A stretch of DNA of 64,000 bases from assembly GCF_011045215.1 (NCBI RefSeq), contig NZ_CP049201.1. One strand, 5' to 3'. Both the position numbers and the translations under genes were made by a program. This document shows, piece after piece, positions 13,183 through 36,098 of this stretch (the stretch's first letter is position 1; each line of letters opens with the position of its first letter). Origin of the DNA: Escherichia coli (GTDB lineage: Bacteria > Pseudomonadota > Gammaproteobacteria > Enterobacterales > Enterobacteriaceae). The notes beneath the pieces are model-generated. The model did not search any database, was not told the origin of the DNA, and saw only the letters and a program-made list of their open reading frames with translations.

Positions 13183-13267
13183 GCCGAAGTGGCGAAATCG
13201 GTAGACGCAGTTGATTCAAAATCAACCGTAGAAATACGTGCCGGTTCGAGTCCGGCCTTCGGCACCA
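13183..13267 (+). tRNA. leuX: tRNA-Leu (anticodon CAA)
   Basis: 85-nt sequence GCCGAAGTGGCGAAATCGGTAGACGC...TTCGAGTCCGGCCTTCGGCACCA with CAA anticodon loop, long variable arm and encoded CCA end. Confidence 0.93.
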
Positions 13268-13456
13268 TAAAAAGCTTTTTTCAAGTCTACCAACGTCTAC
13301 TTTAGTCCATAAAAACAGTAAGTTAAGCAGAGTTTTGGCCTTTCTTAGTCTGTTCACGTCTACTTACTTCTATCCACATATACCAACGAATGATGGTATA
13401 ACTGGTGGTATCTTCGGTTCGATTGATTTTGATACCAACAGCGGAGGTATCAACTG

Positions 13457-14707
13457 ATGGCACTTACTGATATCAAAGTTAGGACTACCAAGCCCTCCGA
13501 CAAACCTTTCAAACTCACAGATGGGCAGGGTATGCACCTGCTGATCAACCCCAATGGTTCAAAATACTGGCGACTCCAATACCGTTTCGATGGCAAACAG
13601 AAAGTTTTAGCATTGGGTGTTTATCCAATGGTCTCTCTTGGTGAAGCTCGCAGGAAACGAGATGAGGCTAAAAAGTTGGTATCTGATGGTATCGACCCTT
13701 CCGAGAAGAAAAAGGCAGACAAGATCGAGCAGAGCGAAGCTCTTACTTTTGAATCTGTTGCCAGGGACTGGCATAAGGCTTGTAAAAGGAAATGGTCAGA
13801 TTCCCATAGCGAGAGAGTTCTAAAAAGCATGGAAGATGGTCTCTTTACTGCTCTTGGTAAAAGAAAAATATCCGAGCTTAATACCAGAGATCTTCTTGCC
13901 CCTATCAAGGCTGTTGAAGCTTCTGGGCGACTGGAAGTTGCTTCCCGCCTACAGCAAAGAACAACGGCAGTGATGCGATATGCTGTCCAGAACGGGCTGA
14001 TAGATTACAACCCTGCCCAGGAGATGGCAGGAGCTATTGCAGTAGCTAAAAGAGTCCACAGGCCAGCTTTGCCATTCGAACGATTCTCAGAACTTTTAGA
14101 ACGAATTGATAGTTTCAAGGGTAGAAAACTCACGAAGTTAGCCGTAAAGCTGACATTGCTCATTTTCATTCGTTCCAGTGAACTTAGGTTTGCTCGTTGG
14201 TCAGAGATAGATTTCGACAATGCCATGTGGACTATCCCTGGGGAACGTGAGCCATTGCCAGGGGTCAAACATTCTCATCGAGGCTCAAAAATGAAGACAC
14301 CACACCTCGTGCCGTTAAGTCGCCAGGCTATAGAACTCCTCAAAGCTATCAAAGAAATCAGCGGTGAATGTGAACTTGTATTCATTGGTGATCATGATTT
14401 TAGAAAGCCTATGAGTGAAAACACGGTAAACAAGGCTTTAAGGTCTATGGGCTACGACACTACGGTTGAAGTATGTGGACATGGTTTTCGTGCGATGGCA
14501 TGTAGTGCGTTGATCGAATCGGGAAAATGGTCAAGGGATGCTGTTGAACGGCAGATGAGCCACCAAGAGCGAAACTCCGTTCGTGCTGCCTACATTCATA
14601 AAGCAGAACACCTTGATGAAAGAAGGCTTATGTTGCAGTGGTGGGCTGATTACCTTAATGCCTTGAAAGATAGGTTTATCAGTCCCTTTGATTTTACAAC
14701 AAAGTAG
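13457..14707 (+). CDS. P4-family tyrosine integrase
   Basis: 416-aa ORF adjacent to the tRNA; N-terminal KPFKLTDGQGMHLLINPNGSKYWRLQYRFDGK arm-binding region and a C-terminal catalytic domain typical of P4-like integrases. Confidence 0.9.
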   Translation: MALTDIKVRTTKPSDKPFKLTDGQGMHLLINPNGSKYWRLQYRFDGKQKVLALGVYPMVSLGEARRKRDEAKKLVSDGIDPSEKKKADKIEQSEALTFESVARDWHKACKRKWSDSHSERVLKSMEDGLFTALGKRKISELNTRDLLAPIKAVEASGRLEVASRLQQRTTAVMRYAVQNGLIDYNPAQEMAGAIAVAKRVHRPALPFERFSELLERIDSFKGRKLTKLAVKLTLLIFIRSSELRFARWSEIDFDNAMWTIPGEREPLPGVKHSHRGSKMKTPHLVPLSRQAIELLKAIKEISGECELVFIGDHDFRKPMSENTVNKALRSMGYDTTVEVCGHGFRAMACSALIESGKWSRDAVERQMSHQERNSVRAAYIHKAEHLDERRLMLQWWADYLNALKDRFISPFDFTTK

Positions 14708-18286: not shown

Positions 18287-18601
18287 ATGAATATCGAAGA
18301 ATTTATGAATGAAGAAAACCATATGTGCAATTTAGGCGAGGATCTTTTTTGCAAGATCTTCGAACCCGGAGCGATTTATGATTTGCCGAATAGCGATTTT
18401 AATAAAGAAATCATTTACTGGCTCAGTCAGTATCTTGTCGGAAATTTGAGACAACCTTTAGACGCGATCTCTGAGCTTGATATTTTCGAGCAGTTTTATG
18501 TTTACGAGACATGGTTCTCGCTAATTAAATGCCCAGATGAAATTAGAAATTTATCGAAACGGATAATTCGATATCAGATTGGGTTAAAAACCATTCTTTG
18601 A
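18287..18601 (+). CDS. Hypothetical protein
   Basis: 104-aa ORF starting 22 nt after alpA. Confidence 0.45.
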   Translation: MNIEEFMNEENHMCNLGEDLFCKIFEPGAIYDLPNSDFNKEIIYWLSQYLVGNLRQPLDAISELDIFEQFYVYETWFSLIKCPDEIRNLSKRIIRYQIGLKTIL

Positions 18602-18732
18602 AAGAACCTATATTTAGTACTATTTTGTAAATTGCATTGTTGAAATGATAGTGCTATTTGCTTTTTGATTTACAAAACATCTTTAACTTCTTTTAAAATA
18701 ATGGGTTAACTATTTTAAGTGAAAAGAAAGGA

Positions 18733-18762
18733 TTATAATATCCCTCTAGAGGGATATTATAA
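18733..18762. promoter_or_regulatory. Perfect 30-bp palindrome upstream of the recombinase trio (candidate operator or recombination core site)
   Basis: ttataatatccctctagagggatattataa is its own reverse complement; lies about 130 bp upstream of the first recombinase gene. Confidence 0.5.
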
Positions 18763-18893
18763 ATTTTCGGCCGGTATGCGTCATTGTAAAAGGGAATAAT
18801 ATTAAATTCAGGAAAATATATTTGTAAATTGCTTATGTTATATGCTTTATTTATTTTCACTGACAATTAAATGTAAATAGAGGCGATATTACT

Positions 18894-20156
18894 TTGAAAT
18901 ATAAAATAAAAAGATTGAAGAATAAAGATGGTATCAGAAGTTGCATTATTATTAATGAGAGCAACGGATTACCCTTGGTTTATTCTAACTTATATATGAG
19001 TGTTATTTCACGAACAAATAGCTATTCATTTTCAACAATGGAAGCAATAGCAAATGCTTTGCTTTTATTTGAAAGATATAATGCTTACATGAATGTGGAT
19101 GTTTTTGATATGGTAAATCCTGACATCGAAAAACTTGTCTCGAACAAAGGATATTTATTCGGGTTAATGAATGCCCTTTCTTACAGAAACGACTTAGAGA
19201 ATGTTACAAGCATTCTTAAAGAACAACATGTCTCTAAAAGAACCCTTTATTTCAAGATAATGACAATTGAAAATTACGTCAAATGGTTTTTTGATAACAT
19301 TGCTATCAATAATATTGATTCTTCTCGTTATGAAGCAATCAGTCGAGCATTTGATTTTATAAAGCCAAGAATAGAGAACGGAAAGAATTACAATATTGAA
19401 AGCGAAAGCAAATCATTGACAAATGAGCAAGTTACAACTTTGACTGATATGGTAAGTGTTAAATCTAAGATTAATCCATTTTCGGAGCATGTAAGGTTTC
19501 GAAATAATCTAATAATTAAAATTTTATTAGAGACAGGTATTAGGGGAGGGGAACTACTTAATATTAAGTTGGTTGATTTTGACTATGTCCACAAAAGTCT
19601 ATGCATAGTAAGAAGGCCAGATGATCAAAACGAACCACGATTAAGGCAACCATTGGTTAAAACTTTAGAAAGAAAAATACCATTGAGTATAGAATTGACT
19701 GAGTTAATACAGAATTATATTAGTGATTTCAGAGGTAAGCAGTGTCATGCAGGGGAGCATGACTATCTGCTTGTTACTCATAGCAGTAAAGGTCAATTAG
19801 GTCATGCATTAACTATTTCAGGTTATCAGAAAATTTTCGAACAAATTAGGAAAAATAGTAATGTTTTGAGCGATATTGTGGGGCATTCGCTAAGACATAC
19901 TTGGAATGTGAAATTCTCAGAAATGATGCTCATGAATTCGAACTCTCAGGAATATATTACTTATGAGAAAGTAAGAAATTATCTTATGGGGTGGAAAAAG
20001 AATAGTACAACCTCAGATATCTATAACCAAGCATTTATAGCACAAGAAAGCCGAAAAATAATGGCTGTTATTAATCCACTCAAAAACATAGTAGAGGACA
20101 AATCCAATGTTTCAAACTCTAAGAAAGCTACAAGAAAGTCAATATTCGGTTTTTGA
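18894..20156 (+). CDS. Tyrosine recombinase-like protein A (first of three tandem genes)
   Basis: 420 aa, probable TTG start; catalytic-domain elements TGIRGGE (Arg box), HSLRHT and a C-terminal Tyr (TSDIY). Confidence 0.75.
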   Translation: MKYKIKRLKNKDGIRSCIIINESNGLPLVYSNLYMSVISRTNSYSFSTMEAIANALLLFERYNAYMNVDVFDMVNPDIEKLVSNKGYLFGLMNALSYRNDLENVTSILKEQHVSKRTLYFKIMTIENYVKWFFDNIAINNIDSSRYEAISRAFDFIKPRIENGKNYNIESESKSLTNEQVTTLTDMVSVKSKINPFSEHVRFRNNLIIKILLETGIRGGELLNIKLVDFDYVHKSLCIVRRPDDQNEPRLRQPLVKTLERKIPLSIELTELIQNYISDFRGKQCHAGEHDYLLVTHSSKGQLGHALTISGYQKIFEQIRKNSNVLSDIVGHSLRHTWNVKFSEMMLMNSNSQEYITYEKVRNYLMGWKKNSTTSDIYNQAFIAQESRKIMAVINPLKNIVEDKSNVSNSKKATRKSIFGF

Positions 20157-21432
20157 AACCAAGGATGGTAATTTCAAAGTGAACTTTTCTTATTCCAAGT
20201 GGAAGATAAGTGAAAGTATAACATTGAACATTGATTCTTTAAGAGTGGTCATCAGTGCATATATACCTATCAAAACCACTTTGGCATATTTCGCTATAAA
20301 TTATAGTGCCAGTTATACTAAGAAAATGTTTTATGCAGTAAAGCATTACATTAAGGCCTGTAATACGAATGATAGCTTGTTTTCTAAAGATTGCATAAAG
20401 TATTACTATAAAGTTGTGAGCTCATTAGATTACACACATGCAGAGACAGTCAAATATTTTTTTATGAAGATGAGTGGTCTTTACCCATCTTTGTTTTCGG
20501 CAGAAGCAATCATATTTTTAGAAAATATTAAAGTTAAAAAAACAAATGCAAACAAGTCTATAAAGACACATGATTATAAAAAAGGTCCCTTTAGTGACTC
20601 GCAATTAAAGGTAATTATAGATTCTGTAGCGATAGCTTATAAGGAAGAAAAGGTAAGTCTGTCAAACTATCTGCTAACCTTCCTTGTTGCATATTCCGGG
20701 CGGCGACCTATGCAAATATCTCAACTTGAAGCTGGTGATCTCTTTGCTTTTAATGGAGAGTACTTTCTCAATATCCCAAGAATTAAACAACGAAATGGAT
20801 ATAGAAAAGAGTTTAGAAAATTACAAATTCCAGAAGAGCTTTTTAGCCAATTGACATATCTCGTTGAAGCTGTGAATTCGCTGGTCAGTGACACATTAAA
20901 AATCGATTTAAGTGAAAAACAAAAGAGAAAACTACCAATTTTTATAAACACATATCCATTCAAAAAAGGATGTGTTGAGCTAAACATGATTGAAAGTGGT
21001 GGATTAAAACTTAACCCCTATGCCATAACACTAAAAATAAGGAACACTATAAATCGTTCAATAAATGAATATCAAGCCTATCTGGGGTGTATAAATTCGC
21101 GCAGATTTAGATATTCATTAGGCACTAAGGTTGCACAATTGGGTTATAGTCCTTCACTGATAGCAAATGTTTTGGACCATTCTTCAATCAATTCTGTTAT
21201 GAGTTATATAGAAAATACAGCGGAAAATGGCAAGAGAATTAATGAAGCTGTAAATGAACTAATGAAGCCACTGGCTAACAAATTTATTGAGGGAAAAGAG
21301 CTTCAGAAAGAGTTAGATTCTTTGAAGCATTTGATAGAAGAATACTGCGGTGGATATAAAACTAACTCTTTTGATAATACAGCAATATCGTTAGTAACTA
21401 ATTCTATCGACGATATGATCAATAGCATTTAA
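20107..21432 (+). CDS. Tyrosine recombinase-like protein B (second of three)
   Basis: 441 aa; AYSGRRPMQISQLE Arg box, box II RRFRYSLGT with Arg in place of the usual first His, and a C-terminal Tyr (VMSYI); GAGGA ribosome-binding site; overlaps gene A by 50 nt. Confidence 0.7.
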   Translation: MFQTLRKLQESQYSVFETKDGNFKVNFSYSKWKISESITLNIDSLRVVISAYIPIKTTLAYFAINYSASYTKKMFYAVKHYIKACNTNDSLFSKDCIKYYYKVVSSLDYTHAETVKYFFMKMSGLYPSLFSAEAIIFLENIKVKKTNANKSIKTHDYKKGPFSDSQLKVIIDSVAIAYKEEKVSLSNYLLTFLVAYSGRRPMQISQLEAGDLFAFNGEYFLNIPRIKQRNGYRKEFRKLQIPEELFSQLTYLVEAVNSLVSDTLKIDLSEKQKRKLPIFINTYPFKKGCVELNMIESGGLKLNPYAITLKIRNTINRSINEYQAYLGCINSRRFRYSLGTKVAQLGYSPSLIANVLDHSSINSVMSYIENTAENGKRINEAVNELMKPLANKFIEGKELQKELDSLKHLIEEYCGGYKTNSFDNTAISLVTNSIDDMINSI

Positions 21433-21444
21433 AAGAAGGATAAA

Positions 21445-23052
21445 GTGATGAAAGAAATCCATGATAAAATGATTAATAACTTCATTATCGCTAATAAGGC
21501 CCATGCGAAAAATTTTGGAAATTTTGAGTGGGATAATTCAAGTTGGGGAGGCGGAATTACATTTTTTAGCGGAATCAAGGTTAGAATGGGGAACAAGAAT
21601 AAGAAATTAATGAATTATAACATTGCAGAGTTCGCAAAAGCATATGTATGGCATGAGTGCTTTCATGATTTATCTGTAGCTTTCAGAGTGCTGAGATTAT
21701 TTAGGATATTAGAAATTGCCATAGGTAAAACAAATAAAGAAGTTAAGATTTCAAGTATAGATCATAAAGTATTAGATGAAGTTATGACTATTGTTCAAGA
21801 AAATTTTGCAATATCCACTTCTTATAAAATATATTTAGATCTTAGGGTATTATGTTCTTTTATGTCTAAGAACGAAATGTTGCCAGAATCCATTACACGA
21901 TGGTCATATCCATTTAAGGCATATGATGCTTACACAAATAGCACAATGGATTCGATGGGAAATTTATCCAATCAGAAAAAACTTCCTGATGAAAAGGCTA
22001 TAGATTTTATTGGTAAAATATTTAGCTCTAATCCAGTTAATGAAAGGGATATATTTACATCTTCTATTTTTGCATTGCTCTTATGTGCTCCATCTCGAAT
22101 TAGTGAAATTATGCTTTTAGAAGAGGACTGTGAAGTTATAGTTGAAGATAGTAATGGCATATCAAGATATGGTTTGCGATTTCTTTCTCTGAAGGGCTTT
22201 GGATACAATACCAAATGGATTCCAGACTGTATGGTTTCTGTAGCTTCAAAGGCTATCATGCGATTGAAAAAACTTACAAGGAATGCAAGGGTTGTTTCTC
22301 GGTTAATAAAAGCAGGGGAAATTAATTTATACGAGTCATTAAACAAAAGTGCGTTTGATTGTTTAACAATTGAAGATCTCCACAAACTTGGCTTTGTTAT
22401 AAATCAATTAAATATCTCCCAAGAAAATCTAAAATTCTTGGCTAAGATAAAACATGGTACAGTCAGTGTAAAAGCATTTTGGATTTATATAGAGCGAAAG
22501 AATGTTAATTCTGAAAATATTAATGCTAATTTATGCTCCATAAATCATAATTTATTGGACTCTATCAAGGGTGCTGATATTTTTACAACAATTAAGGCAT
22601 CTTCAAAGTATTTTAGAGCGGATTTTCGCACCGATAATATGAATAACATATTTCATAGGAATATACATTTTAACTGTGATGGTTCTGTTTTAATTTTCCG
22701 CAGCCATCAAATTAGACATTTACTTAATACTATAGCTCAACGAAGCGTATTGTCAGAGATACAAATTGCCCAATGGTCTGGGAGAAGGAGTGTTAAGCAG
22801 AATTCAGTATATGATCATATGTCTCACAACGAGTTATCAGAACTATCAAGGAAACTATTGAACGGAAACACCTACGAAGAAACAAAAATTTCAGCATCTT
22901 CATTTAATGAACAATCGATTATTATGAATTTGATTAAAGATAAATTTGAAAAACTAGAATTAAAAATCCAAAATTCAGATCCAAGAAAAAGAAAATATAT
23001 TCTGGAAAAAATTAAAGATTTAAGATTGGAAATTGAATACATATTAATGTGA
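21445..23052 (+). CDS. Tyrosine recombinase-like protein C (third of three)
   Basis: 535 aa, GTG start; CAPSRISEI Arg box, HQIRHLL box II and a C-terminal Tyr (NSVYDH). Confidence 0.7.
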   Translation: MMKEIHDKMINNFIIANKAHAKNFGNFEWDNSSWGGGITFFSGIKVRMGNKNKKLMNYNIAEFAKAYVWHECFHDLSVAFRVLRLFRILEIAIGKTNKEVKISSIDHKVLDEVMTIVQENFAISTSYKIYLDLRVLCSFMSKNEMLPESITRWSYPFKAYDAYTNSTMDSMGNLSNQKKLPDEKAIDFIGKIFSSNPVNERDIFTSSIFALLLCAPSRISEIMLLEEDCEVIVEDSNGISRYGLRFLSLKGFGYNTKWIPDCMVSVASKAIMRLKKLTRNARVVSRLIKAGEINLYESLNKSAFDCLTIEDLHKLGFVINQLNISQENLKFLAKIKHGTVSVKAFWIYIERKNVNSENINANLCSINHNLLDSIKGADIFTTIKASSKYFRADFRTDNMNNIFHRNIHFNCDGSVLIFRSHQIRHLLNTIAQRSVLSEIQIAQWSGRRSVKQNSVYDHMSHNELSELSRKLLNGNTYEETKISASSFNEQSIIMNLIKDKFEKLELKIQNSDPRKRKYILEKIKDLRLEIEYILM

Positions 23053-23061
23053 GGAGATTAT

Positions 23062-23460
23062 ATGGCAAGAAAGTTTTATGATAAAGAAATAAAAGCTATT
23101 GTTAAACTTATTGAAACCTGGAGTAAGCCTGATTTCACTTGGGATTCTTTATGCGTGGCTTGCAAAAAAATTTTAGGTAAAGTACCTACACGGCAAGCAT
23201 TAAGCCAGCATAGTGAGATTGTCGTTGCGTATAGGACCAGAAAAAGATCTGGTATGGTTAAACGTCAAAATACGAAGTTACCCGGTAGCCTGAGCCTTGC
23301 GGCGAAAAGAATAGAACGACTTGAAAATGATAATTCGGCACTAAAATATGAAAATAATAATTTACTGCTTATGATTCAAAGAATGCACGAAAATGCTTAC
23401 AGGCATAATATATTGGCTTCTATTCTTGAAGAAGAATTTCCACAGAGAGCAAGAAAATAA
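23062..23460 (+). CDS. Small basic protein with a predicted coiled coil, coupled to the recombinase trio
   Basis: 132-aa ORF starting 9 nt after recombinase C; the C-terminal half (AAKRIERLENDNSALKYENNNLLLMIQRMHENAY) looks coiled-coil. Confidence 0.5.
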   Translation: MARKFYDKEIKAIVKLIETWSKPDFTWDSLCVACKKILGKVPTRQALSQHSEIVVAYRTRKRSGMVKRQNTKLPGSLSLAAKRIERLENDNSALKYENNNLLLMIQRMHENAYRHNILASILEEEFPQRARK

Positions 23461-25259: not shown

Positions 25260-26405
25260 CTATAAACGAATTTTTATCGCCTTGTTTAAAGGTTTCATTG
25301 CGTAGATATTTGAGAAGGTCGTGTGTGTTTTGTGAAGAATGGTCTTACCAAAGCTTCTCAGAAGCTCGATGTAATGCTTTATGGAAGCAAGCCACTCTAC
25401 GAATCTGAGATGCTTTTGCCGTTGTACTGCATTTTTTTGAAGAATCTTTCCTACGATTTCGTTTCGTTTGTCTTCTCTAAGCCGTAATTCCAGTTCTGCA
25501 ATTTTTTCAACGATACTTTCCTTTCTCTCAGTGGTTTTCAACACTGTTGCAGGAGCAGGAGCAGCAGGTTGGTCTTTTGTCGATATGTCGCTTCGTAGAG
25601 CTTCTAAGTGGTCGGGGTTGTAGTTAAGCCGATTACTGAGATTTGCCCAGGAGTAGCTCTTGCCCAATTGTGAAGCTTTGAAAGCTATGCCTGTGTATTC
25701 GAAAGAGAAGCCGTTCATTTTACCGGTAGAGGCAATATTGGCCTTCCAAGATACTTCAGCTTCTTCCAGCCTCTTGATAAAAGTTAGAAGGTCCGGCTTA
25801 TCAGATAAACTTTTATCAAGTATCTGCTGCAGAGCTTCTCTTGGTGAAAGCACCCCGGTTCGTTCCGATAGCATTTTCTCATTACGGGACACTCTCTTCC
25901 GCTTCGGTTGTGCTTGCGAGGGGGGAGATGCAGTTTTGGTCACTGTCAGGCCATGAGCGATTTCGAGTTTACTGATGATCTGTGTGCTGATGAGGTTTTC
26001 GTTCCTACCCAAGTAGAGCTTCCCACCATTGAGATCTATGCGACTTGCGATAATGTGTATGTGCTGGCCATCGTCGTCATGAAGCACATAGCAACGAAGG
26101 TGAGTATCCCTGAACCCCATCCTCTTCATGTAGTCATCTGCGATAATGGACCACTGTTCATTCGTTAGTGTTTCACCGTCGGGTAAGCGAAGTGAGTTGT
26201 GCCAAACGGGTTTTGCGACATCTAGGCGAAGATGCTTGGTGCTATCGAATTCAGCGATCATTTCAACGGCTGAATCACTTAACATGTTCCCGCCAATGAC
26301 GACTGGATCGCTTTTGTGGTGTGCTCCCGATTGTAATACATAACGAACAACACCAGCGAAGCTCTTACCCCTCTTGATCTTCCGCATACCCTTCACGAGG
26401 GACAC
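25260..26405 (-). CDS. Relaxase (MobA/VirD2-type mobilisation nuclease)
   Basis: 381 aa; three-histidine motif HDDDGQHIHII typical of the relaxase/mobilisation nuclease domain; overlaps the upstream mobC-like gene. Confidence 0.75.
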   Translation of the reverse strand: MSLVKGMRKIKRGKSFAGVVRYVLQSGAHHKSDPVVIGGNMLSDSAVEMIAEFDSTKHLRLDVAKPVWHNSLRLPDGETLTNEQWSIIADDYMKRMGFRDTHLRCYVLHDDDGQHIHIIASRIDLNGGKLYLGRNENLISTQIISKLEIAHGLTVTKTASPPSQAQPKRKRVSRNEKMLSERTGVLSPREALQQILDKSLSDKPDLLTFIKRLEEAEVSWKANIASTGKMNGFSFEYTGIAFKASQLGKSYSWANLSNRLNYNPDHLEALRSDISTKDQPAAPAPATVLKTTERKESIVEKIAELELRLREDKRNEIVGKILQKNAVQRQKHLRFVEWLASIKHYIELLRSFGKTILHKTHTTFSNIYAMKPLNKAIKIRL

Positions 26406-26739
26406 TCCAAAAATCTGTTCTTAACAAGTTGTGACGAAGCTCTTCAAGTTGTCGCTTCACAGCGAAAAGCTCTGTATGAGTAAGCTGGCTATCTTTACTC
26501 TTACTGTCGATATGGAGAGCAATACGATTCAACTTTTGTGATATGTCAGACAATTTTTTCCAGGCTTCAGTATTAATTGTCGGTACTACTGGTGGCAGGT
26601 TTTGCAGAAATGACATGCGGAGCCATTCACCTTTACTTTTATTACCTCGTTTTATATTTAAAATCTGTAATTCATTGTTGTTGAGTCGAACACTTATACA
26701 ATGTATTCTAATTCTGTCATCTAATCTTAATTTAGCCAT
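26365..26739 (-). CDS. MobC-like relaxosome accessory protein
   Basis: 124 aa; KLNRIALHI resembles the MobC N-L-N-Q-I-A-R motif; 41-nt overlap with the relaxase gene. Confidence 0.65.
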   Translation of the reverse strand: MAKLRLDDRIRIHCISVRLNNNELQILNIKRGNKSKGEWLRMSFLQNLPPVVPTINTEAWKKLSDISQKLNRIALHIDSKSKDSQLTHTELFAVKRQLEELRHNLLRTDFWSVPREGYAEDQEG

Positions 26740-26885
26740 ATAAGTTCCTTTTATATGATTTAATATGATTAATGATAGTTATTATTTCCCATTAGTCAAT
26801 AGCAGAACGGTTTTGATATATGGGTTTAATGTGCTAAAAATAAATCTCTCTGAAATAAAGTATTCAAAGATTCCCTAAATTAAAA

Positions 26886-28049
26886 TTAAGGATGATCTAT
26901 TGAAACAAACTTTTGACTAAACTCCAGCCATCTTGCATTATCAACATCCTTCACAAAAGCAATCAGACCTGCGACATGATTGTAAAAGCCAATTGGAGAG
27001 TCAAATTTTTCATGTCTTGCAACTTCTGAGAGACCAAATTTTTTTATTGAGTAAAGGTGGCGTTCAATACGTTTATAAGTTTGTTTAGATAATCGAGGGA
27101 CATTGCCATCAACAAGTAATCCTAAAACTATTTTTTTTGAACCAGGTCCAGCTACTCTTATTTTGCTTACGTTTTCTTTGAAATGGTGCTTACGAATGAT
27201 GCTGATAATGTTATTTTGTATTTTTCCAACCGAAACACCGTCGGGTAGAGTACCACCGCAGGATAATGTTATATCATCAGCATATCGAGTATAAGTGAAG
27301 CCATATTTATTAGCATATTCAGATAGAGAAATATCTAACTTTACAGTGGCTAAATTACTAAGCATTGGGCTACTCGGTGCCCCTTGAGGTAGCACTCCTA
27401 ACGGCCATGGTTCTGATATGTCCCAAAAAAGGCTCTTCTCTTTATTTTGTCCGTAAAGCTTATATTCCTTAGTTGAGTGCTTAGGAACAGAAATTAGAGA
27501 TTGTAAATGTTGTGGTAAACGTATAGTTGTGCATAGCCTTGATAGTTCAAATGCTATTAATGGCCGATATCCAGCATTTTTAAAAACCATATAAACATCA
27601 GATTCATTTATTGAATAAAAGAAATCGGAAATGTCGAATTGGAAGAGCCATTTAGCACCACAATGCTGTTCTGCACATTTTCTGATGCCACCATTAGGAT
27701 GGAAAGCAAAAGAAGTATTATGGGGAACTAACTTTTTTAATATTTCACTATTGATGAAATGCTGTACTTTAAATATCTCGCCAGTTACAGCATGAATATG
27801 GCGTCTTCCACCTGAACGTTTTTTTATAGCAAACATGCGATAATTTGCTGATTCACGGCGGCGTGATACAGTGGATCGTAGCAAGCGATAATCAACACCA
27901 GTAATTTTTGAAAGATGGCGTAATGTAAAAATTACAGGGAGATTATTTTTCTTCAGATTACTTGCATAATTTCTTAAGTTTAGAGCCTGTGTCTTCCCTA
28001 AGGATGACTCTGCATTTTGATAAAGTTGGTGTGCTGACCAGATTTCCAT
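26886..28049 (-). CDS. Reverse transcriptase, retron-type or defence-associated
   Basis: 387 aa; motifs FDISDFFYSI, LPQGAPSSP, catalytic YADD, and a thumb-like KIRVAGPGSKKIVLGLLV; no maturase, endonuclease or other extra domain. Confidence 0.85.
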   Translation of the reverse strand: MEIWSAHQLYQNAESSLGKTQALNLRNYASNLKKNNLPVIFTLRHLSKITGVDYRLLRSTVSRRRESANYRMFAIKKRSGGRRHIHAVTGEIFKVQHFINSEILKKLVPHNTSFAFHPNGGIRKCAEQHCGAKWLFQFDISDFFYSINESDVYMVFKNAGYRPLIAFELSRLCTTIRLPQHLQSLISVPKHSTKEYKLYGQNKEKSLFWDISEPWPLGVLPQGAPSSPMLSNLATVKLDISLSEYANKYGFTYTRYADDITLSCGGTLPDGVSVGKIQNNIISIIRKHHFKENVSKIRVAGPGSKKIVLGLLVDGNVPRLSKQTYKRIERHLYSIKKFGLSEVARHEKFDSPIGFYNHVAGLIAFVKDVDNARWLEFSQKFVSIDHP

Positions 28050-28237
28050 TCACCTATCCTTTGAGCCCAGGGGGCCATCAGTGTCATACATTTTCCGAGT
28101 CCTCGATGGCCGTTAATGTATGACATTGAAGGGCGGCGTAGCCGCCTTTGCGTCAGATCTTTCCAGAGATGTTTCTCCAACATCCCCATCCGTTGTAACA
28201 AAAGCCACAACAGATTCTGTCAAACAAGCGGTGAACT
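28050..28237 (-). ncRNA. Candidate structured non-coding RNA upstream of the reverse transcriptase (possible retron msr-msd)
   Basis: 188-bp intergenic region with an 11-bp perfect stem (28082-28092 with 28115-28125), an interleaved 7-bp stem (28073-28079 with 28105-28111) and a GGCGGC-gta-GCCGCC hairpin (28132-28146). Confidence 0.35.
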
Positions 28238-29458
28238 TCACTCATCATTGTTTAACGGCTGAACGGAGTGCTGATCAGCACACCAAGACTCTGGAATGTA
28301 AAGACCAAAATCCCATACACTATCGTTTTTAACATGCCTAGAATTTACAAGTATGTCAAGTCCGAATTTAGATAATCGTTTTTGAGTTGTCAATAGTCCT
28401 AATGTCTCTGCATATATGAGTAGTTTTTCTACATACGAACAATCAACATTCAAACGTAAGGCAATGCTTTTGTTATCTCTGACACCTCTTTTTATAAGTT
28501 TTAGTAAATTTATAATTTCGGGAGATAAAGATGAATGGGGGGAAGTGTTATGCTTTGTTCCATTTTCTAACAAGGCAAGCAGCCATCCTGGAATTGCTCT
28601 ATCAGGCATTAGTCCTTGCCATTTTTTATTAGAAAACCATAGTATTCCAGGAAGGTTATTAGGGACGCTATGATAAAAAATTATATTAGATAAAACATTA
28701 CCATAGCCAAGACGAGCCCATGGAGGAATTTTGGTTTGATTTTTACAAAGATTGATTATTTCATTATACTGCTCACCCCACCGAGTTTCTAACCAATTTT
28801 CATTATATACGATGTTACTTATGAAATTGATTTTTTCAGATTTTCTATATTTTCTTACTCCATGGTCTGAGCCGCGAATAGTATTGATTATTCTATTTTC
28901 AGAACCTAGTGTTCTGGCGAAAGAAATTAAAGTTAATCTTACTAGTCCTAAACTCCACCAACTTAAAAAGGTAGGGTTATCGAGCATGGCATTAATAAAT
29001 CCGGATACTCTATCACCACTACCAATCGAATCATCAATAAGTAAAAAATCGTTGACTTTAGATTTTTTCAGATCATTGAGTGATGGATGATCTAAAAACA
29101 TAGTTTTATTAGACCGCACAAGGTTTGAAATAATTGAATATACTAAGTCTTCGCTACCTTGCGAATGACCTGGTCTATTAACAACATCACCATTAAGGTC
29201 CCATAATACTTGTTTGTCTGGATCTAATTTGCGAACTGAATAAAGGGCATAATTTTTATTTTTTGGTAAATCAGAAATGCTCTTTTGAAGCCATATGGTA
29301 AACTCATCTCTACTTACAAAAGTTAACTTGCTCAAGATGTTTTTTGCAATCGCTTTTTGGCTGCTATTAAATTGCATAAGCCATTGAGCTATTTCCTGAG
29401 AGGATTCAATTTTTTCTACTGAAAGTATTTTAAATTTAGGTTTGTCTCTTGTTTTCAT
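28238..29458 (-). CDS. Phosphoribosyltransferase-like protein with a C-terminal helix-turn-helix region (candidate effector)
   Basis: 406 aa; PRPP-binding-type motif FLLIDDSIGSGDRVSG in the N-terminal half; HTH-like KSIALRLNVDCSYVEKLLIYAETLGLL near the C-terminus. Confidence 0.65.
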   Translation of the reverse strand: MKTRDKPKFKILSVEKIESSQEIAQWLMQFNSSQKAIAKNILSKLTFVSRDEFTIWLQKSISDLPKNKNYALYSVRKLDPDKQVLWDLNGDVVNRPGHSQGSEDLVYSIISNLVRSNKTMFLDHPSLNDLKKSKVNDFLLIDDSIGSGDRVSGFINAMLDNPTFLSWWSLGLVRLTLISFARTLGSENRIINTIRGSDHGVRKYRKSEKINFISNIVYNENWLETRWGEQYNEIINLCKNQTKIPPWARLGYGNVLSNIIFYHSVPNNLPGILWFSNKKWQGLMPDRAIPGWLLALLENGTKHNTSPHSSLSPEIINLLKLIKRGVRDNKSIALRLNVDCSYVEKLLIYAETLGLLTTQKRLSKFGLDILVNSRHVKNDSVWDFGLYIPESWCADQHSVQPLNNDE

Positions 29459-29693
29459 TTTTTTTAACCACTGTCAGGGCAATTGTTATTTCATAACATA
29501 AAAAGTAATGATGGTAAAGGTTTTGTTGTATCATTAACCTTCTTTATAACTGAGTAGACTAAGTTTAGTACTCTTATACGAAGCTAAATGAGCTAAATAT
29601 TAAATACTAAAATGTAATGGCGGATATTTTTCAACCGAAGGGCGAAAAACAAGGGAACGCAAAGAAGCGGAGCTTCGATGAGTTAGCCCTTGC

Positions 29694-30278
29694 TTATTCA
29701 TATGATTTGTATTTCTTTTCATCTACTAAATTTATTATGGACGATGAGGTTTTATATATCAACTTTACATTGTGTAAAGATATATTGTGTTTGCTAATAA
29801 AATATAAAAGATCCAATAGCATCTGTTCTTGCCGTTCTTGTGGAAACTCTAATTTTACGATTGGAGTAAATTCAACAATAAAACCACTATTCAACAGTAG
29901 TTTTATGTAGCTAAATGAGTTTGGCGTAACTGTTTTGATTTTTATTATTTTATTAGTAATTAGATGCTTATGGTTTATAATAATGTGAGGGTTGAGCAGT
30001 GCCATATCATATGACATGAATGTTAAACCATGACTATCTATTATGTTCAAGTCGATACCAAGTTGTATAAACATATCGATTATTGCTTTGCTATGTATCC
30101 AGTTATAAAATAAAGGTGTCCTTCCATAGTTATCTAAATGATTTAGGTCGGCTCCTGCAGCTAAAAGAGATGTTGTAAGTAAATAGTCATTAGAATAAAA
30201 TAATGGTGTACGACCACAATTATCCTTTAAGTTTATTAAACCATTGTCTATGAATATATTAGATAAATTATTGTGCAT
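29694..30278 (-). CDS. Ankyrin-repeat protein
   Basis: Two GRTPLFY...L..GADLN ankyrin units; start placed at the Met preceded by a perfect AAAGGAGGT ribosome-binding site. Confidence 0.65.
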   Translation of the reverse strand: MHNNLSNIFIDNGLINLKDNCGRTPLFYSNDYLLTTSLLAAGADLNHLDNYGRTPLFYNWIHSKAIIDMFIQLGIDLNIIDSHGLTFMSYDMALLNPHIIINHKHLITNKIIKIKTVTPNSFSYIKLLLNSGFIVEFTPIVKLEFPQERQEQMLLDLLYFISKHNISLHNVKLIYKTSSSIINLVDEKKYKSYE

Positions 30279-30339
30279 TTTACCTCCTTTTATCATTATG
30301 TATATTAAAAAAAGGAGGTTGTCAATATTTAGAGGTTAG

Positions 30340-30588
30340 TTAACCACCAAATGTTTTTTTCTTAGGTTGTGGGGGCTCTGCATTAAGTATGATAGTTTTA
30401 ATATTTGCATTTATTTGATTGATATTATCAGTCAATATATTAATAACTGATAATGCTTCTACAGGTGTGCTAAATGATGATTCTAAAAACACGCCTGAGC
30501 CTTTCAAAAATATATGGTAAGTGAGTATGCCATTTTCTTCATTTTCATATATATCATAAAGTTCATTTACTGTTTCGTACAATTTCAT
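30340..30588 (-). CDS. Hypothetical protein
   Basis: 82-aa ORF in the same minus-strand gene string. Confidence 0.4.
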   Translation of the reverse strand: MKLYETVNELYDIYENEENGILTYHIFLKGSGVFLESSFSTPVEALSVINILTDNINQINANIKTIILNAEPPQPKKKTFGG

Positions 30589-30643
30589 TATTATACTCCT
30601 TGATAATGATGGTTTATTTCAATGGGCTCGCGATATCACTACC

Positions 30644-31519
30644 TTATAAATGATCTCCAATGTGAGCAATAGCGATTTGTGCCGGTCTATCAGGAATTCT
30701 ATTAAAGAAGCCAAAGTATATTCTATTGTAGTAATAAGTTCCTTTTCGATTAGTATTGTCCATGTATTCAAGTTTATAATGGAATTCACAATTCACGTCT
30801 TTATAGATACAATCACCCACTTTAAAATCACGTTTTAATTCCCCTATGGCTCGTTTATTTTTGCCTCCACCTTCTGGTGTTACAAGATAAGGTAACGATG
30901 AATTCATAATTCTAATGTTATGTTGTGAGTCATTAGGTATAATTGTATAGTTATTAACAAAATAAAGAAATTCAGTGATGCTTTTCAAAAAATTTTCATA
31001 TCCACCTTCAATTTTCCTAATAAAATTAAAGGTTTGTGGTGGGTTATCCAAAAAAATGACATTCTTGAAAATGTTTTTAATATTGTCAGCATATTCATCA
31101 CAATCCGATGGGAATTCATCAAGGATTTTCTTAGAAAGATCAATTATTTCACTTTCACTAGAAACTGTATTATCCTTTTTTAAAGGTATGTCTGGAGATT
31201 GATAGGCACAGAGTTTTCTTTCGGCAAGTATCGATGGGGATGTATTGATGATATTTAGAAGTTCATTGCAGCCTATTTCATCCAATAAACTAATTTGGCC
31301 TATTTTATAATACTCATTAACAAGGCCACCGTAATCAGGGTTTGTTGAAAATAATTTAGTGACAAATTTTCCATCAAATTCATTGGAGCGAAGAAACTTT
31401 ATAAAATCTGAATCCACTCTCTCTACAAGTGCTTTAAGATCTTTAATCTGGTTAAAAATCTTAATTTGTTCTTCTTCAAGAGAAAAACTATCTATGAACA
31501 AGCAAACACCTGCTTTCAT
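30644..31519 (-). CDS. Hypothetical protein (third gene of the DUF262-ATPase operon)
   Basis: 291-aa ORF starting 9 nt after the ATPase stop; no confident motif. Confidence 0.55.
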   Translation of the reverse strand: MKAGVCLFIDSFSLEEEQIKIFNQIKDLKALVERVDSDFIKFLRSNEFDGKFVTKLFSTNPDYGGLVNEYYKIGQISLLDEIGCNELLNIINTSPSILAERKLCAYQSPDIPLKKDNTVSSESEIIDLSKKILDEFPSDCDEYADNIKNIFKNVIFLDNPPQTFNFIRKIEGGYENFLKSITEFLYFVNNYTIIPNDSQHNIRIMNSSLPYLVTPEGGGKNKRAIGELKRDFKVGDCIYKDVNCEFHYKLEYMDNTNRKGTYYYNRIYFGFFNRIPDRPAQIAIAHIGDHL

Positions 31520-31528
31520 GAAATCCCC

Positions 31529-32680
31529 TTAATTTTCAATATCAGGAGTATTAAATGATCCTGTCATAATGGTATACATATCAATTGATTGCTGGTCAAA
31601 GAATCCTTTCGGCCAACTAGAAAGTTTTCCATCTTTGCCAATAGATATCTTTTCTGCAGTAGATTCATTATTCTCATGTGAAATATAAAATAACGAAATT
31701 AGCTCAGGTGAAAAGTCAGGAGATGTTCTTGCTACGACACGGATTCCGTTGAGAAGGTGATCGCTATGAGTTTCTATGAATACCTGTACTCCCGCTTGAG
31801 CAGTGTAAGCTATTAATCTACCCATATAGCTTTGTCCTCTAGGGTGCAAATGGGCTTCCGGGTTTTCTAAAACTACTAATTCGCCCGGTTTTGCTAAAAG
31901 TAATGCTGAAACAATACTCAAAGCATAGCTATAACCAAAACCAATGTTTTTGGGTTTAGTTTGTTTTCCTGACTCAGCCTGTATTGTGTTATAAGCAATG
32001 TTTGCACTAACTTCCAATTTTGGCTGTATTTTATAATTTGGGGATATTTCATCCATCCATGCCTGTATATTATTCGCAACCCTTACATTATTATAATTAT
32101 GATGTATTCTTGGGTCGTCTTTATTTGGATTACCATCTTTCAGTATTAGTCTATCTTGCCTATTCATTATATTGTCTAATACTTCGATGACATATTCACC
32201 TTTTTTCCCCAACCAATCGCTATGAAAATTGTGTTGTGATAAAGAAATATTGTCTCTTGGACCAATACGTTCGGCTTCAATATATTGAAAATTACTTGCA
32301 TGTATAAAGTTTTTAATTGTTTTAATGCTATCCATACCTGAAATACATGGAAGTTCATTACGAAGATTTGCTGAGTCCTCTTGTGTAACCCCCCAACTGA
32401 CTTCACATTCTTTAACTGAAAGAGTGATTTTCAGTTGATCATCATCTGAAATAAAGTCATTAATAATATCGTCAATACGACCAATGTTTATCAGTTCACC
32501 ATTTAACTTTATATCATTTTTACTACTAAAATCAGACTGTAACACCATACCTATGGCTTGCATTACTGTACTCTTACCGACAGAGTTATTACCACAAAAT
32601 ACATTTAGACCTGACAAATCAAAAGATTGCTCTTTGTATGATTTAAAATTTTTGAGTTTTATCGATTTAATAGGGAGCAT
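31529..32680 (-). CDS. ABC-type (AAA_21-like) ATPase
   Basis: Walker A GNNSVGKST near the N-terminus; LENPEAHLHP Walker B/D-loop region and ETHSDHLL H-loop near the C-terminus; ATG sits 3 nt after the upstream gene's stop, with a GAGGG ribosome-binding site. Confidence 0.75.
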   Translation of the reverse strand: MLPIKSIKLKNFKSYKEQSFDLSGLNVFCGNNSVGKSTVMQAIGMVLQSDFSSKNDIKLNGELINIGRIDDIINDFISDDDQLKITLSVKECEVSWGVTQEDSANLRNELPCISGMDSIKTIKNFIHASNFQYIEAERIGPRDNISLSQHNFHSDWLGKKGEYVIEVLDNIMNRQDRLILKDGNPNKDDPRIHHNYNNVRVANNIQAWMDEISPNYKIQPKLEVSANIAYNTIQAESGKQTKPKNIGFGYSYALSIVSALLLAKPGELVVLENPEAHLHPRGQSYMGRLIAYTAQAGVQVFIETHSDHLLNGIRVVARTSPDFSPELISLFYISHENNESTAEKISIGKDGKLSSWPKGFFDQQSIDMYTIMTGSFNTPDIEN

Positions 32681-32682
32681 TA

Positions 32683-34599
32683 TCAATTACCCTCATTAGC
32701 ATTAACAATCTTAATGCCTGTGCTTTGTTCAAGAATTTTCGCAAAAGAATTGAATCTATATAATATAGTTATTTTCTTTCCTGTTGAGGTAGAGATAGAG
32801 TCCTTAAACCCTCGCTCTGCTTCAATGTAAGTCTGTGAATCCCATGTGGCATATTCTTTTGAATTGCTATCAATAGCAGAATAAAGGGTATCAACCAATT
32901 TATCAGAATTTTTCAGCAATAACTCTTCTTGTTCCTCAGTAACATAATAGAAATAGTAAATTATCACTTCATAAAGTTGCTTACTTATAGGTGATGTATT
33001 AGAGCCAATCTCTTTTATGAAAGCTAAATCACCGAAAACATCATAGGCGAGGTTTAAAGCCCTCAAATATTTTCTTTCTATTTGAAGATACTCGTTGCAT
33101 TCATTCGAAATGTACGCACTTCCTAAATCTATTTCTTTTTCGTTTAATAAGTTTAATTTATATAGATTTAAGTTTTCCATGGCTTTTGATAAAAACTTAT
33201 CATAGGAATTAAAATTATAATTTTTAAAGCCAATATTTATAAATGCAAGAGCAGCAAGGCAAAGCTCCATATCCTTTTGTCTATCAGGCTTAACCTTACC
33301 ATGCGTTGCTTGTTTGAATTCGTTTTTGGATGCCAGATACCGTAAAAACTTAACACTTGAACCTTGATTCAGGGCCGAACGAATTTCTTGATCACTTAAC
33401 TTAACACCATATGTATTGATACGGTGGAATAATTCAACTATGAGATCAGTGCTATCTTTATTCATTTCTATAAAGTAAGCCGTGATTTCATATTCTCTTA
33501 TGGCTCTTTGTTCAGTGCGAGTAAGCTCACCAAACTCTTTACCATTTAAATCCTCAAGGATATCAAGTTTAGAAAGTTTAAATTCTCCACTCATAAAATC
33601 ATAAATTGTTGTGATCCGTTGTAAACCATCAACAACGACCCACTTATCTTCTGCGATTCGATTACCAAAATAAAATACAGGAAGTGGGAGTTTTAAGAGA
33701 ATAGACTCGATTAATTTAGACTTCTTCTCATTATTCCAAATACGATCTTTTCTTTGGAAGTCAGGTTGTAGTTCAATATCACCAAAATGAACCCGATCAA
33801 AAATGAGAGATAAAACCGGAGTCTTGGAGGTAATTCTTGCAACACCAAGTTTAGCTTGTAGAGTTTTTAATTCCAAGTTCAACTGTGATGATGTTGTATC
33901 ATTTTCACCCTCATCTACTCCATAAGTATTGGGTGACTCTATAAGTTCTTCTACAGTAGTATTATTACTAATTTTTAATGTTGGCACCTCTATATTATAA
34001 TCAAGAGTCACAACTGAGTTAGCCATATCTGCGGAAAGCTCTTTAAATCTATTAAGAGTAACCTCAACCATTTTTGAAGCAATTTCAGATGGGAATTTCT
34101 TCAAAACTATTTGATAAGCATCATCAAGGCTTTGAACTAATTCAACCTGCTGTTCATAAATTTTCCCAAGATTCAAATTGAGAAAATTATCAATTTTTTT
34201 TCTTAAAACCCTAAATTCAGAGCCTTGAACTTCTGATAATGTCGCTGCTTCATGGACATTATGACTACGCAATAACAGGTGTTTTTTGTTTTCATACTTG
34301 AAATGTTGAATATAGGGTAAGTTAGCAAATATTGTTTCTGGTTGGTTCCTGCTCGAAGAACTACCGTAAAGAACCTGCTCTACATTACAAAAACCTCTAA
34401 TATTTAAATTGCTGTAAATCGATTCAAGCTCTGATAATGAACGTGTTTTAGATTCAGAATTAGAAGAGACTTTATATTTACCGTTTTCACGATCAATGCT
34501 TATAATACATAGTGGAGGCGTAGAAGGATTAATTGGCTGTAGCTGTTTGCCAAAAAGAAGATTTTCGATGTCGTTTAGCACTTGTTCAAAGTTAAGCAT
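32683..34599 (-). CDS. DUF262 (ParB-like nuclease fold) domain protein
   Basis: 638 aa; central QPDFQRKDRIWNNEK...VVDGLQRITTI matches the DUF262 IPxFQR and DGQQR signatures. Confidence 0.7.
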   Translation of the reverse strand: MLNFEQVLNDIENLLFGKQLQPINPSTPPLCIISIDRENGKYKVSSNSESKTRSLSELESIYSNLNIRGFCNVEQVLYGSSSSRNQPETIFANLPYIQHFKYENKKHLLLRSHNVHEAATLSEVQGSEFRVLRKKIDNFLNLNLGKIYEQQVELVQSLDDAYQIVLKKFPSEIASKMVEVTLNRFKELSADMANSVVTLDYNIEVPTLKISNNTTVEELIESPNTYGVDEGENDTTSSQLNLELKTLQAKLGVARITSKTPVLSLIFDRVHFGDIELQPDFQRKDRIWNNEKKSKLIESILLKLPLPVFYFGNRIAEDKWVVVDGLQRITTIYDFMSGEFKLSKLDILEDLNGKEFGELTRTEQRAIREYEITAYFIEMNKDSTDLIVELFHRINTYGVKLSDQEIRSALNQGSSVKFLRYLASKNEFKQATHGKVKPDRQKDMELCLAALAFINIGFKNYNFNSYDKFLSKAMENLNLYKLNLLNEKEIDLGSAYISNECNEYLQIERKYLRALNLAYDVFGDLAFIKEIGSNTSPISKQLYEVIIYYFYYVTEEQEELLLKNSDKLVDTLYSAIDSNSKEYATWDSQTYIEAERGFKDSISTSTGKKITILYRFNSFAKILEQSTGIKIVNANEGN

Positions 34600-34799
34600 T
34601 AGTGCTTCCTAAATCCATGTTAGAATTGAAAACCATCCTGTAGGATACCATCATTTGGGTATTGGTTCAATTTTTATCTTTACTTCAATAAAAAATTACG
34701 TTATGCGTTTAAATGACTATGTTGCGTGATGGTATTTATGATGGTATTGATTATCTTGTATTAAGAAAATGACATATAAACCAATGAGGTAAGTGCGAT

Positions 34800-34822
34800 G
34801 TTCGAGTCCGGCCTTCGCACCA
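34800..34822 (+). repeat. Direct repeat of the leuX 3' end (attR-like island boundary)
   Basis: gttcgagtccggccttcgcacca matches tRNA positions 13244-13267 with one missing G. Confidence 0.8.
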
Positions 34823-35499
34823 CACCGTATGCAAATCGAGTCGCTCAAGAGCGGCTTTTTTTGTGTCTGAAATCACCCATATCCGTGCAGTATATAGGCC
34901 TGCCAGAAAAGCAGTTCAGTATTATTCATTTTGTAGTCGATGGTCCCAAGTTTGCTCTGGCTGGAAGCTGCATCGTCCACATTACGTGGGCAGGGTGGTT
35001 TCGCTATGCTATTTGAACGTTTTGACCATGTGGCTCAGGTAGCTAATATCAAAAGACGTCATTTTGTCTCCACGCCCACCTTGGTGAATATTCAATAAAT
35101 AGTTTCGGTCGAGAGCAGTTATGTAGGGCTAGCAGACGAGATGCGCAGACATCTTGTTGAAGACAATTTTACTGACCACCTGAGAACGCTATTTTACCGA
35201 ATAATATTTATTATCTTGGCGAATAATGATGATTACCTGTGTAACTATGGTTTTATGCTGATGGGACCGGCAGTACAATTTCTGTAGTGTACTCGCAATT
35301 TCAGATCTCTGGCGTTTATTCTGGTGCAAAGGAGGTATGTGATGAAAACTTTGCTACCATGCCATTAAATGCGACCAATATCGGATTATACATCAGTTGC
35401 TTGTTGTAGATTTCATTGGTTATAAAAATGCAAGGTGTAAAAGATGAAATTTATAATTATTAGTTAAGTGGCTAGTTTTATAGTAATTTAGACAATAGG

Positions 35500-36051
35500 A
35501 TGTATGGAAAAATGGGAAAAGTTTATGATACCACTAGAATTAGTAATCTTGCTAACGACCCGAAACAGTTTTGTTCTTTTTTTTGTGAGTACATAAAAAG
35601 AGATGATATTAGTATAGATATCGCCTTGGATGTGCTGAGAATATCTTCCATCTATTATAATAGATTTTCAGTTCAGACTGAAGTTGAGTATAACAATACA
35701 TTCAAAAAATGTATTAATGAGCTAGTAAACTCATTTCCTGATAACATTGAACTAATCTCTGAGTTCGAGAGTCAATGTAAAATTATGCATGATATAAATA
35801 ATTCTTTCTTTGCGGCTACAAAATGTGCTGGTATTTGGCGTAAAAATACAAAAAAATCACATGCATTAATACTTAATCTCATCATGTTTTGTGAGATGTT
35901 TTTATCATCATTATCATCCTTGGTTGTGGTCAATGATCCTAAAAAAATGAAGAGGATTTTTCCATTATTTATCGTTTCTAAAATATTAATATTCATGCTG
36001 AACCTGATATCGAATATTTTCGAGTTATCGATAGGGCATTTGATGAGGTAG
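35500..36051 (+). CDS. Hypothetical protein
   Basis: 183-aa AT-rich ORF with a hydrophobic C-terminus. Confidence 0.45.
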   Translation: MYGKMGKVYDTTRISNLANDPKQFCSFFCEYIKRDDISIDIALDVLRISSIYYNRFSVQTEVEYNNTFKKCINELVNSFPDNIELISEFESQCKIMHDINNSFFAATKCAGIWRKNTKKSHALILNLIMFCEMFLSSLSSLVVVNDPKKMKRIFPLFIVSKILIFMLNLISNIFELSIGHLMR

Positions 36052-36098
36052 CCAATTACACCGGAAGAATATTTTCTTATTTACGGACTCATGGGCCA

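Follow-up and report, generated by a model that had tools for sequence, protein, structure and literature searches.

The 64,000-nucleotide (nt) stretch of Escherichia coli contig NZ_CP049201.1 (RefSeq assembly GCF_011045215.1) analyzed here, hereafter the window, carries four consecutive genes on the plus strand that we designate A to D. Gene A (18894..20156) encodes a GinA-type recombinase of 420 amino acids (aa), B (20107..21432) a GinB-type recombinase of 441 aa, C (21445..23052) a GinC-type recombinase-fold protein of 535 aa, and D (23062..23460) a small GinD-type protein of 132 aa. Neighboring genes overlap or are separated by no more than 13 nt, save for A and B, which overlap by 50 nt, and the open reading frame (ORF) of B is uninterrupted. 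Together, A-B-C-D (18894-23460) is the predicted ginABCD operon of a GInt, or 'genomic island with three integrases', an element type whose archetypes are found in Pseudomonas stutzeri DSM 4166 and P. syringae pv. phaseolicola 1448A (Bardaji et al. 2017, Sci Rep 7:46254). We focused on recombinase B, in which the original prediction, made from the letters of the window alone, had noted an arginine in place of the first conserved histidine of box II and had proposed a divergent or regulatory subunit.

The arginine at the box II histidine position of B is not an alignment artifact. B contains GCINSRRFRYSLGTKVAQLGYSPSLIANVLDHSSINSVMSYIEN, that is, NS-R332-R333-F-R335-Y336-SLGT, with box II proper (R332-R333-F334-R335-Y336) at 21100..21114 (+) and the R332 codon, CGC, at 21100-21102; the stretches of the protein shown for reference are INSRRFRYSLGT...LDHSSINSVMSYIEN. 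In an HMMER alignment of a profile of 23 B homologs with XerA (5hxy) and with a XerC-like protein from an archaeon (4a8e), 'arRFRYtlGT' of the B profile fell opposite 'PHvLRHtFAT' and 'PHqLRHsFAT', a register in which R332 corresponds to the box II histidine (Cre H289), R335 to Arg II, H358 to His/Trp III and Y367 to the nucleophile. An hhalign comparison of the B and C families, weak in itself (E=0.067), agreed with this register and placed R332 opposite H421, R335 opposite R424 and Y367 opposite Y456. In box I (R200-P-M-Q203, 20704..20715, +), 'tGrRpiQ' stood opposite 'tGvRvgE', matching the G-x-R-x-x-E of XerA, the XerC-like protein and XerH, so that R200 is Arg I and Q203 occupies the Glu/Asp I position. 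K227 (20785..20787, +), within PRIKQR...R, is the candidate catalytic beta-hairpin lysine by alignment to the IKGKG..R lysine region of XerH, and the segment from H358 to Y367 (21178..21207, +) aligned to the LGHs...iY of Xer proteins. Spacings in B are canonical, with 32 residues from R335 to Y367 and nine from H358 to Y367. A canonical histidine elsewhere in the box II region was not found: the only histidines of B are residues 80, 111, 155, 358 and 408, and none lies between residues 156 and 357. The substitution, the retained downstream arginine and tyrosine, and the box II motifs originally reported for A (GHSLRHT) and C (SHQIRHLL) were thus all borne out.

Family models and structure prediction both place B among the recombinases. 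Against Pfam Phage_integrase (PF00589) it scored 28.9 bits, a narrow pass over the cut-off of 27.1, and in the catalytic set R200, K227, R335, H358 and Y367 each line up with an active-site residue of the Xer proteins; the recombinase-specific auxiliary residues are replaced, by R332 at His II and by Q203 at Glu/Asp I. NF041502 ('integrase_1'), an NCBIfam equivalog with a curated cut-off of 350 bits, gave B 246.5 bits across profile positions 3-387 of 484, the part without a counterpart being the C-terminal Cys-rich one; the Pectobacterium relative scored 633 bits. The AlphaFold2 (AF2) model of B, with a mean predicted local distance difference test (pLDDT) score of 80, begins a helix at residue 331, and Foldseek matched it to XerA, Cre, IntI, XerH, Tn1549 Int and lambda Int.

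Conservation among relatives of B separated the residues of its active site into invariant and variable ones. An exhaustive HMMER search recovered 560 relatives at E<=0.001; the top 150 of the ~560 representatives were examined, and the alignment comprised 169 full-length relatives, mostly representatives of 50%-identity clusters. R200, K227, R335 and Y367 were each present in 169/169, H358 in 165/169 (98%), and Q203, in place of the usual Glu/Asp, in 166/169. Position 332 itself was varied: arginine occurred in 82 sequences (49%), tyrosine in 30 (18%), threonine in 20 (12%), isoleucine and lysine in nine each and valine in seven, followed by asparagine, leucine, histidine and others. Arginine is the commonest residue at the histidine position, and the original prediction calls for one refinement: the strictly conserved arginine of the family is not R332 but R333 (167/169), an extra, family-specific residue directly after the histidine position. 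The RRFRY motif was shared by relatives of B down to 25% identity, and its N terminus was conserved in homologs down to 55% identity. Position 332 also covaried with 336, one helical turn away, such that R, Y, K or N at 332 went with Y336 and T, I, V or L with R336; R336 was found in 33/42 sequences of the latter kind and in 5/98 of the former (Fisher p about 1e-18). The sequences with R336 are slightly more alike (mean identity 0.35, versus 0.30 for the rest) and may form one clade, so the covariation is a hint of compensation only.

The Pseudomonas archetype clade keeps the histidine, with GHRFR[HY] in 10/10 sequences, and shares with the family of B the R-x-x-Q of box I (GQRGxQ) and the arginine at +1. 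The loss of the histidine is therefore a trait of the clade that includes the enterobacterial proteins, neither general to GinB nor peculiar to the copy in the window. B also differs from most relatives at the C terminus. A cysteine-rich, zinc-ribbon-like module (C..C...CYxC..F.P) was found in 132/169 relatives and is lacking in B, whose C-terminal part (21208-21432) ends about 75 residues past the catalytic tyrosine; the short form is a conserved subgroup (37/169), to which B belongs together with the relatives nearest to it.

Purifying selection acts on B. Compared with a 79%-identical ortholog, it showed a nonsynonymous rate (dN) of 0.114 and a synonymous rate (dS) of 0.72, giving a dN/dS of 0.16. 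The corresponding ratio was 0.17 for A and 0.07 for D, the latter indicating tighter constraint. Copies of B with 98-99% identity were found in Salmonella, Enterobacter and E. coli.

We assigned the module to the GInts because its gene order and sizes recur, because the equivalents of C and D occur in a published ginC-ginD block, and because its motifs match the archetype. Three consecutive, co-oriented genes of the tyrosine-recombinase fold are followed by a small fourth gene; A (E=9.6e-17) and B match PF00589, and B and C have the recombinase fold according to Foldseek. Genes in the A-B-C-D order and of similar sizes adjoin ssb in Pectobacterium (402/520/671/139 aa) and were also found in Alteromonas (325/543/737/128 aa), on further E. 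coli- and Salmonella-type contigs and on pETN48, an IncF plasmid; this synteny is part of the evidence for D. In an E. coli locus 98.3% identical over the module, WP_001399631 stands at the position of C and WP_004200789 at that of D, and these two proteins appear as a ginC-ginD synteny block in Additional file 10 of Idola et al. 2023 (PMC10214605). The encoded proteins show homology to GinA, GinB, GinC and GinD, though the similarity of B to the archetype is weak. P. stutzeri DSM4166 segments printed in Fig. S1 of Bardaji et al. share motifs with A (GLRRSE, HTHILRH and FGW...HY of GinA), with B (GQRGTQ, GHRFRHTLGT and H...Y of GinB) and with C (THAFRHELNT and SGR...VYNH of GinC); by BLASTP, B matched the GinB fragment weakly (E=0.003), aligning only from box II through the tyrosine. 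Protein A carries a canonical set (R217-x-x-E220, H331-x-x-R334-H, W367, Y377), and the C-terminal part of D includes a heptad-like stretch that by eye has the look of a coiled coil; GinD is described in the literature as a coiled-coil, TnpC-like protein. Recombination by the archetype needs all four gin genes.

Like the archetype GinB, B is encoded in second place in a compact A-B-C-D operon whose genes all point the same way, and the two have in common the G-x-R-x-x-Q box I, the x-R-F-R-[H/Y]-T-L-G-T box II and the H...Y tail. B differs in box II, where the archetype has GHRFRH with the histidine and B has SRRFRY with arginine, and it belongs to another clade, close to NF041502, within which it is a short form without the C-terminal Cys-rich module.

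Other multi-recombinase elements were considered and rejected as the system type on gene order, gene content and model scores. The SEs (strand-biased circularizing integrative elements; intA-tfp-intB-srap, Idola et al. 2023, PMC10214605), Tn554 (tnpA-tnpB-tnpC) and the RIT elements (ritABC) are likewise multi-recombinase modules with site-specific insertion, and a small coiled-coil accessory protein occurs as Srap in SEs, TnpC in Tn554 and GinD in GInts. In SEs the second gene encodes a non-catalytic Tfp of at least 550 aa, whereas B has 441 aa and a full nucleophile set; for the related E. coli replicon NC_017656.1, two parts of a survey table give 0 and 1, which we take as the SE and GInt counts (PMC10214605). 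RIT elements, set apart here by their published description, comprise exactly three recombinases, each 315-410 aa long, together with terminal inverted repeats, and they lack a fourth core gene; in the window the sizes are 420/441/535 aa and D is conserved. Tn554 has only two recombinases. A gamma-mobile-trio (GMT) needs GmtY, GmtZ and GmtX homologs in tandem; B gave a partial 19-bit match to the GmtY model (cut-off 340), and there was no match for GmtZ or GmtX.

Published surveys and mutagenesis offer precedents for an active site of this kind. Gibb et al. 2010 (PMC2943603), who surveyed about 12,000 recombinases and made all 19 substitutions at each Cre active-site residue, found that no active-site residue is less well conserved than the box II histidine (87% His, 6.8% Tyr, ~13% non-His), as against 95% conservation for Glu/Asp I across the superfamily, with neither strictly required. 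All but five substitutions of Cre H289 were still active (PMC2943603). Type IB topoisomerases (TopIB) have no equivalents of His II and Glu/Asp I, and the poxvirus enzyme has K220-x-x-R223 instead of H-x-x-R, with the lysine pointing to the +1 phosphate (PMC2943603). B is comparable in its residues: it has the Arg, Lys, Arg, His, Tyr set that matches poxvirus R130, K167, R223, H265 and Y274, it is without His II or acidic residue I, and it carries a basic residue three before Arg II (R332-x-x-R335 versus K220-x-x-R223). By its conserved residue set, B thus presents a putative TopIB-like pentad in a recombinase fold. The likeness is one of active-site composition only. B sits in a site-specific recombination operon, sequence and profile comparisons gave no match between B and TopIB, and its best sequence and fold matches were Xer, Cre and IntI recombinases. 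In the telomere resolvases ResT (Y293) and TelA (Y363), which are active enzymes, a tyrosine beside the nucleophile takes the active-site position of the box II histidine. A YRFRY subgroup of the GinB family (18% of representatives) similarly has tyrosine at His II, as do ~7% of tyrosine recombinases, whereas B itself has arginine, and the biology of the resolvases (hairpin telomere formation) is unrelated.

We infer that B is most likely an active enzyme with a non-canonical active site that partners GinA in strand exchange, a reading to which we assign a probability of roughly 0.6. Cleavage of DNA by B is argued for because the whole chemistry-critical set, nucleophile included, is invariant. 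As the GinB subunit of the ginABCD recombination module on a GInt-type integrative island, B would belong to a clade that gave up two residues specific to tyrosine recombinases, the box II histidine (now R332) and Glu/Asp I (now Q203), and kept the five common to TopIB (R200, K227, R335, H358 and Y367) along with the family-specific R333. It would cleave and rejoin one DNA strand pair at the att sites of the island as the partner of the canonical GinA, in a pairing analogous to that of XerC with XerD, and GinC and GinD would complete the recombination complex. In canonical enzymes, His II stabilizes the transition state and helps to activate the tyrosine; in B this function would fall to water, the solution used by TopIB, or to the basic or tyrosine side chains close by at 332, 333 and 336.

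Several points weigh against an active B. Arginine and lysine both count among the five residues that inactivate Cre when placed at H289, and Cre E176Q had no measurable activity in vitro (PMC2943603); by the Cre yardstick, R332 and Q203 would be two inactivating changes. As for positions 332 and 336, their covariation may trace to one clade and not to repeated compensation, so we kept it as a hint and dropped it as proof of the latter. Confidence in the AF2 model is no more than moderate at residues 330-370 (pLDDT 65-83), and the published gin knock-outs are frameshifts, from which catalytic and structural needs are not separable. The Cre results, together with the marginal Pfam score, speak for B as a regulatory or architectural subunit with dead or weakened catalysis, one that binds DNA and controls its active partner or partners without cleaving, and in GInt and SE systems one protein with the recombinase fold is already regarded as non-catalytic. 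In GInts, however, the literature gives that role to GinC, not GinB. We regard a non-cleaving B as unlikely, since nothing would oblige such a protein to preserve Arg I, Lys, Arg II, His III and Tyr across 169 relatives; the substitutions are ancient and family-wide, with Q203 and R333 found even in the histidine-containing archetype clade, and any of R, Y, T, I, K and V is accepted at position 332, which fits a dispensable auxiliary residue better than a switch. Of the earlier proposal, 'divergent' is upheld by the missing box II histidine, Q203 and the Pfam score of 28.9 against 27.1, and 'regulatory' runs against the invariance of R200, K227, R335 and Y367, the 98% conservation of H358 and a dN/dS of ~0.16.

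B could instead be active but unbalanced, with slow cleavage, a shifted cleavage/ligation equilibrium or a strand preference, so that GinA and GinB would exchange one strand pair far better and give rise to the 'no empty site' or copy-out-like behavior of some GInts and SEs. Several mutants of Cre H289 and Flp H305 do accumulate covalent or Holliday-junction intermediates, and Cre H289A reverses the order of strand exchange (PMC2943603). This proposal is purely inferential, however, and the Pseudomonas archetype GinB keeps its histidine, so its loss cannot be a general cause of GInt behavior; we hold it to be decidedly doubtful. Erosion of B as a decaying gene in a degenerate island remnant, with the histidine lost along the way, might be suspected from the mosaic island, which in related E. 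coli strains is peppered with insertion sequence (IS) elements that interrupt the relaxase gene, and from the lack of the Cys-rich module of most relatives. This is effectively refuted by the selection and conservation data, namely the intact ORF and dN/dS of 0.16, the 98-99% identical copies in three genera, the short form being a conserved subgroup and the presence of RRFRY in distant relatives. An active B with a non-canonical active site remains our preferred reading.

Protein C bears on how catalysis might be shared within the module. GinC has been reported to be without the RHRY motif, the catalytic tyrosine or Arg I, which appears untrue for this clade. C carries R218-x-x-E221, K250, H421-x-x-R424-H425, R447 at the His/Trp III position and Y456, none of which varies among 119 homologs with identities as low as about 30%, and its spacings, 32 and 9, are canonical. 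THAFRH...SGR...VYNH is likewise present in the archetype GinC of P. stutzeri. Foldseek matched C to XerH, Tn1549 Int and Cre. Pfam gave no match for C or D and NCBIfam none for C, a direct sequence search of the PDB with the C-family profile gave no recombinase match, hhalign of the C family versus protein A was uninformative, and the AF2 model of C has low confidence at residues 420-490; the register for C is based on the weak hhalign comparison with the B family (E=0.067), the spacings, the invariance and the fold. A bolder proposal would make GinB-type proteins a distinct catalytic variety, with a TopIB-like pentad, invariant Gln, optional His II and an extra Arg, and GinC active as well, giving each GInt three chemically different active recombinases. 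We consider this quite unlikely; if true, a division of labor among the three could underlie the 'no empty site' or copy-out-like outcomes.

The region upstream of ginA contains features of possible relevance to regulation and mobility. A perfect 30-bp palindrome, TTATAATATCCCTCT|AGAGGGATATTATAA, at 18733..18762 (not assigned to a strand) lies within the 290-bp upstream region and is identical in loci whose gin genes differ at dS 0.4-0.7, and it is absent upstream of a divergent gin set; it may be a candidate operator or recombinase-binding site. Within the same region, TTTGTAAATTGC forms a direct repeat of 12 nt with copies at 18624 and 18821. Where ginA truly starts is uncertain: TTG at 18894 is the earliest start codon in frame, and the RefSeq start of a 98%-identical E. 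coli ginA lies 6 nt further upstream, where the window has ATT.

By definition, the gin operon marks the 5' end of a GInt, short imperfect direct repeats (attL and attR) flank it, and the island excises as a circle. Relative to E. coli CUVET19-1937, a strain with a different gin set, identity breaks sharply at 18603/18604, ~290 bp upstream of ginA. The two share a left module (P4-type int, cytosine methyltransferase, DUF6387, AlpA and a hypothetical protein) at 97% identity, compared from 13243 up to 18603. At the same position CUVET19-1937 then carries another ginABCD (400/436/624/128 aa), with no DNA similarity detectable to 18604-23454 of the window, and beyond the gin set its genes are 76-79% identical up to the relaxase. 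This pattern may stem from an exchange of modules, or separate GInts may have entered the same site. No convincing terminal repeats were found between 18560-18900 and either 36000-39200 or 13200-13500, one 12-nt inverted match only, and there is no second copy of the tRNA-Leu 3' end within the window. A DUF6387-AlpA-hyp-ginABCD-...-relaxase block recurs elsewhere, beside Pycsar-type genes (locus L007) and beside hin-fljB-fljA (L008), and both of these loci are without the leuX P4-type integrase. Because DUF6387-AlpA-hyp travels with the gin operon in L007 and L008, the mobile unit may begin upstream of DUF6387 instead of at ginA. On the IncF conjugative plasmid pETN48 (NC_014615.1), ssb is followed by ginA-ginB-IS3-ginC-ginD and then avs4, and on a Pectobacterium chromosome a GinB-type module lies directly downstream of ssb; the region 3' of ssb may be a recurrent GInt target.

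In the window, ginABCD lies inside a low-GC (32-37%) island bounded by tRNA-Leu(CAA) (leuX, 13183-13267) and a point at roughly 38.9 kb, and the flanks are E. coli-like, with valS-pepA-lptFG-ahr and nan-fim genes at 98% identity. A plasmid origin of the locus was ruled out, as a PLSDB megablast search gave no match, although GinB-type modules of distant relationship are found on IncF plasmids. The island holds its own P4-type integrase (13457-14707), a MobA-type relaxase and defense cargo. The MobA/VirD2 relaxase is encoded at 25260-26405, and GInts are putatively non-mobilizable in published accounts. A reverse transcriptase gene (26886-28049) beside that of a PRTase-CE/winged helix-turn-helix protein (28238-29458) has a retron-like look, and further cargo within 25260-37547 includes an ankyrin protein and an AAA/DUF3696 ATPase with a GmrSD_N/DUF262 protein (31529-34599).

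For annotation, the outcome is that the recombinase trio is a predicted GInt module inside a leuX defense island, and that a missing histidine alone is no ground to label B a pseudo-enzyme. Arginine at 332 reflects natural variation that extends across a clade of GinB proteins in a known type of element, and it does not mark this copy as a regulatory pseudo-enzyme. The complete and invariant catalytic set of GinC, a protein held to be non-catalytic, is a more interesting by-product than the arginine of B. GInts and their relatives (SEs and Tn554-like elements) move defense, virulence and resistance genes. A GinB clade that lacks both the box II histidine and the acidic residue of box I, with the TopIB-type pentad kept invariant, is a natural case for testing the view, drawn from Cre mutagenesis, that His II and Glu/Asp I were added later to a core like that of the topoisomerases.

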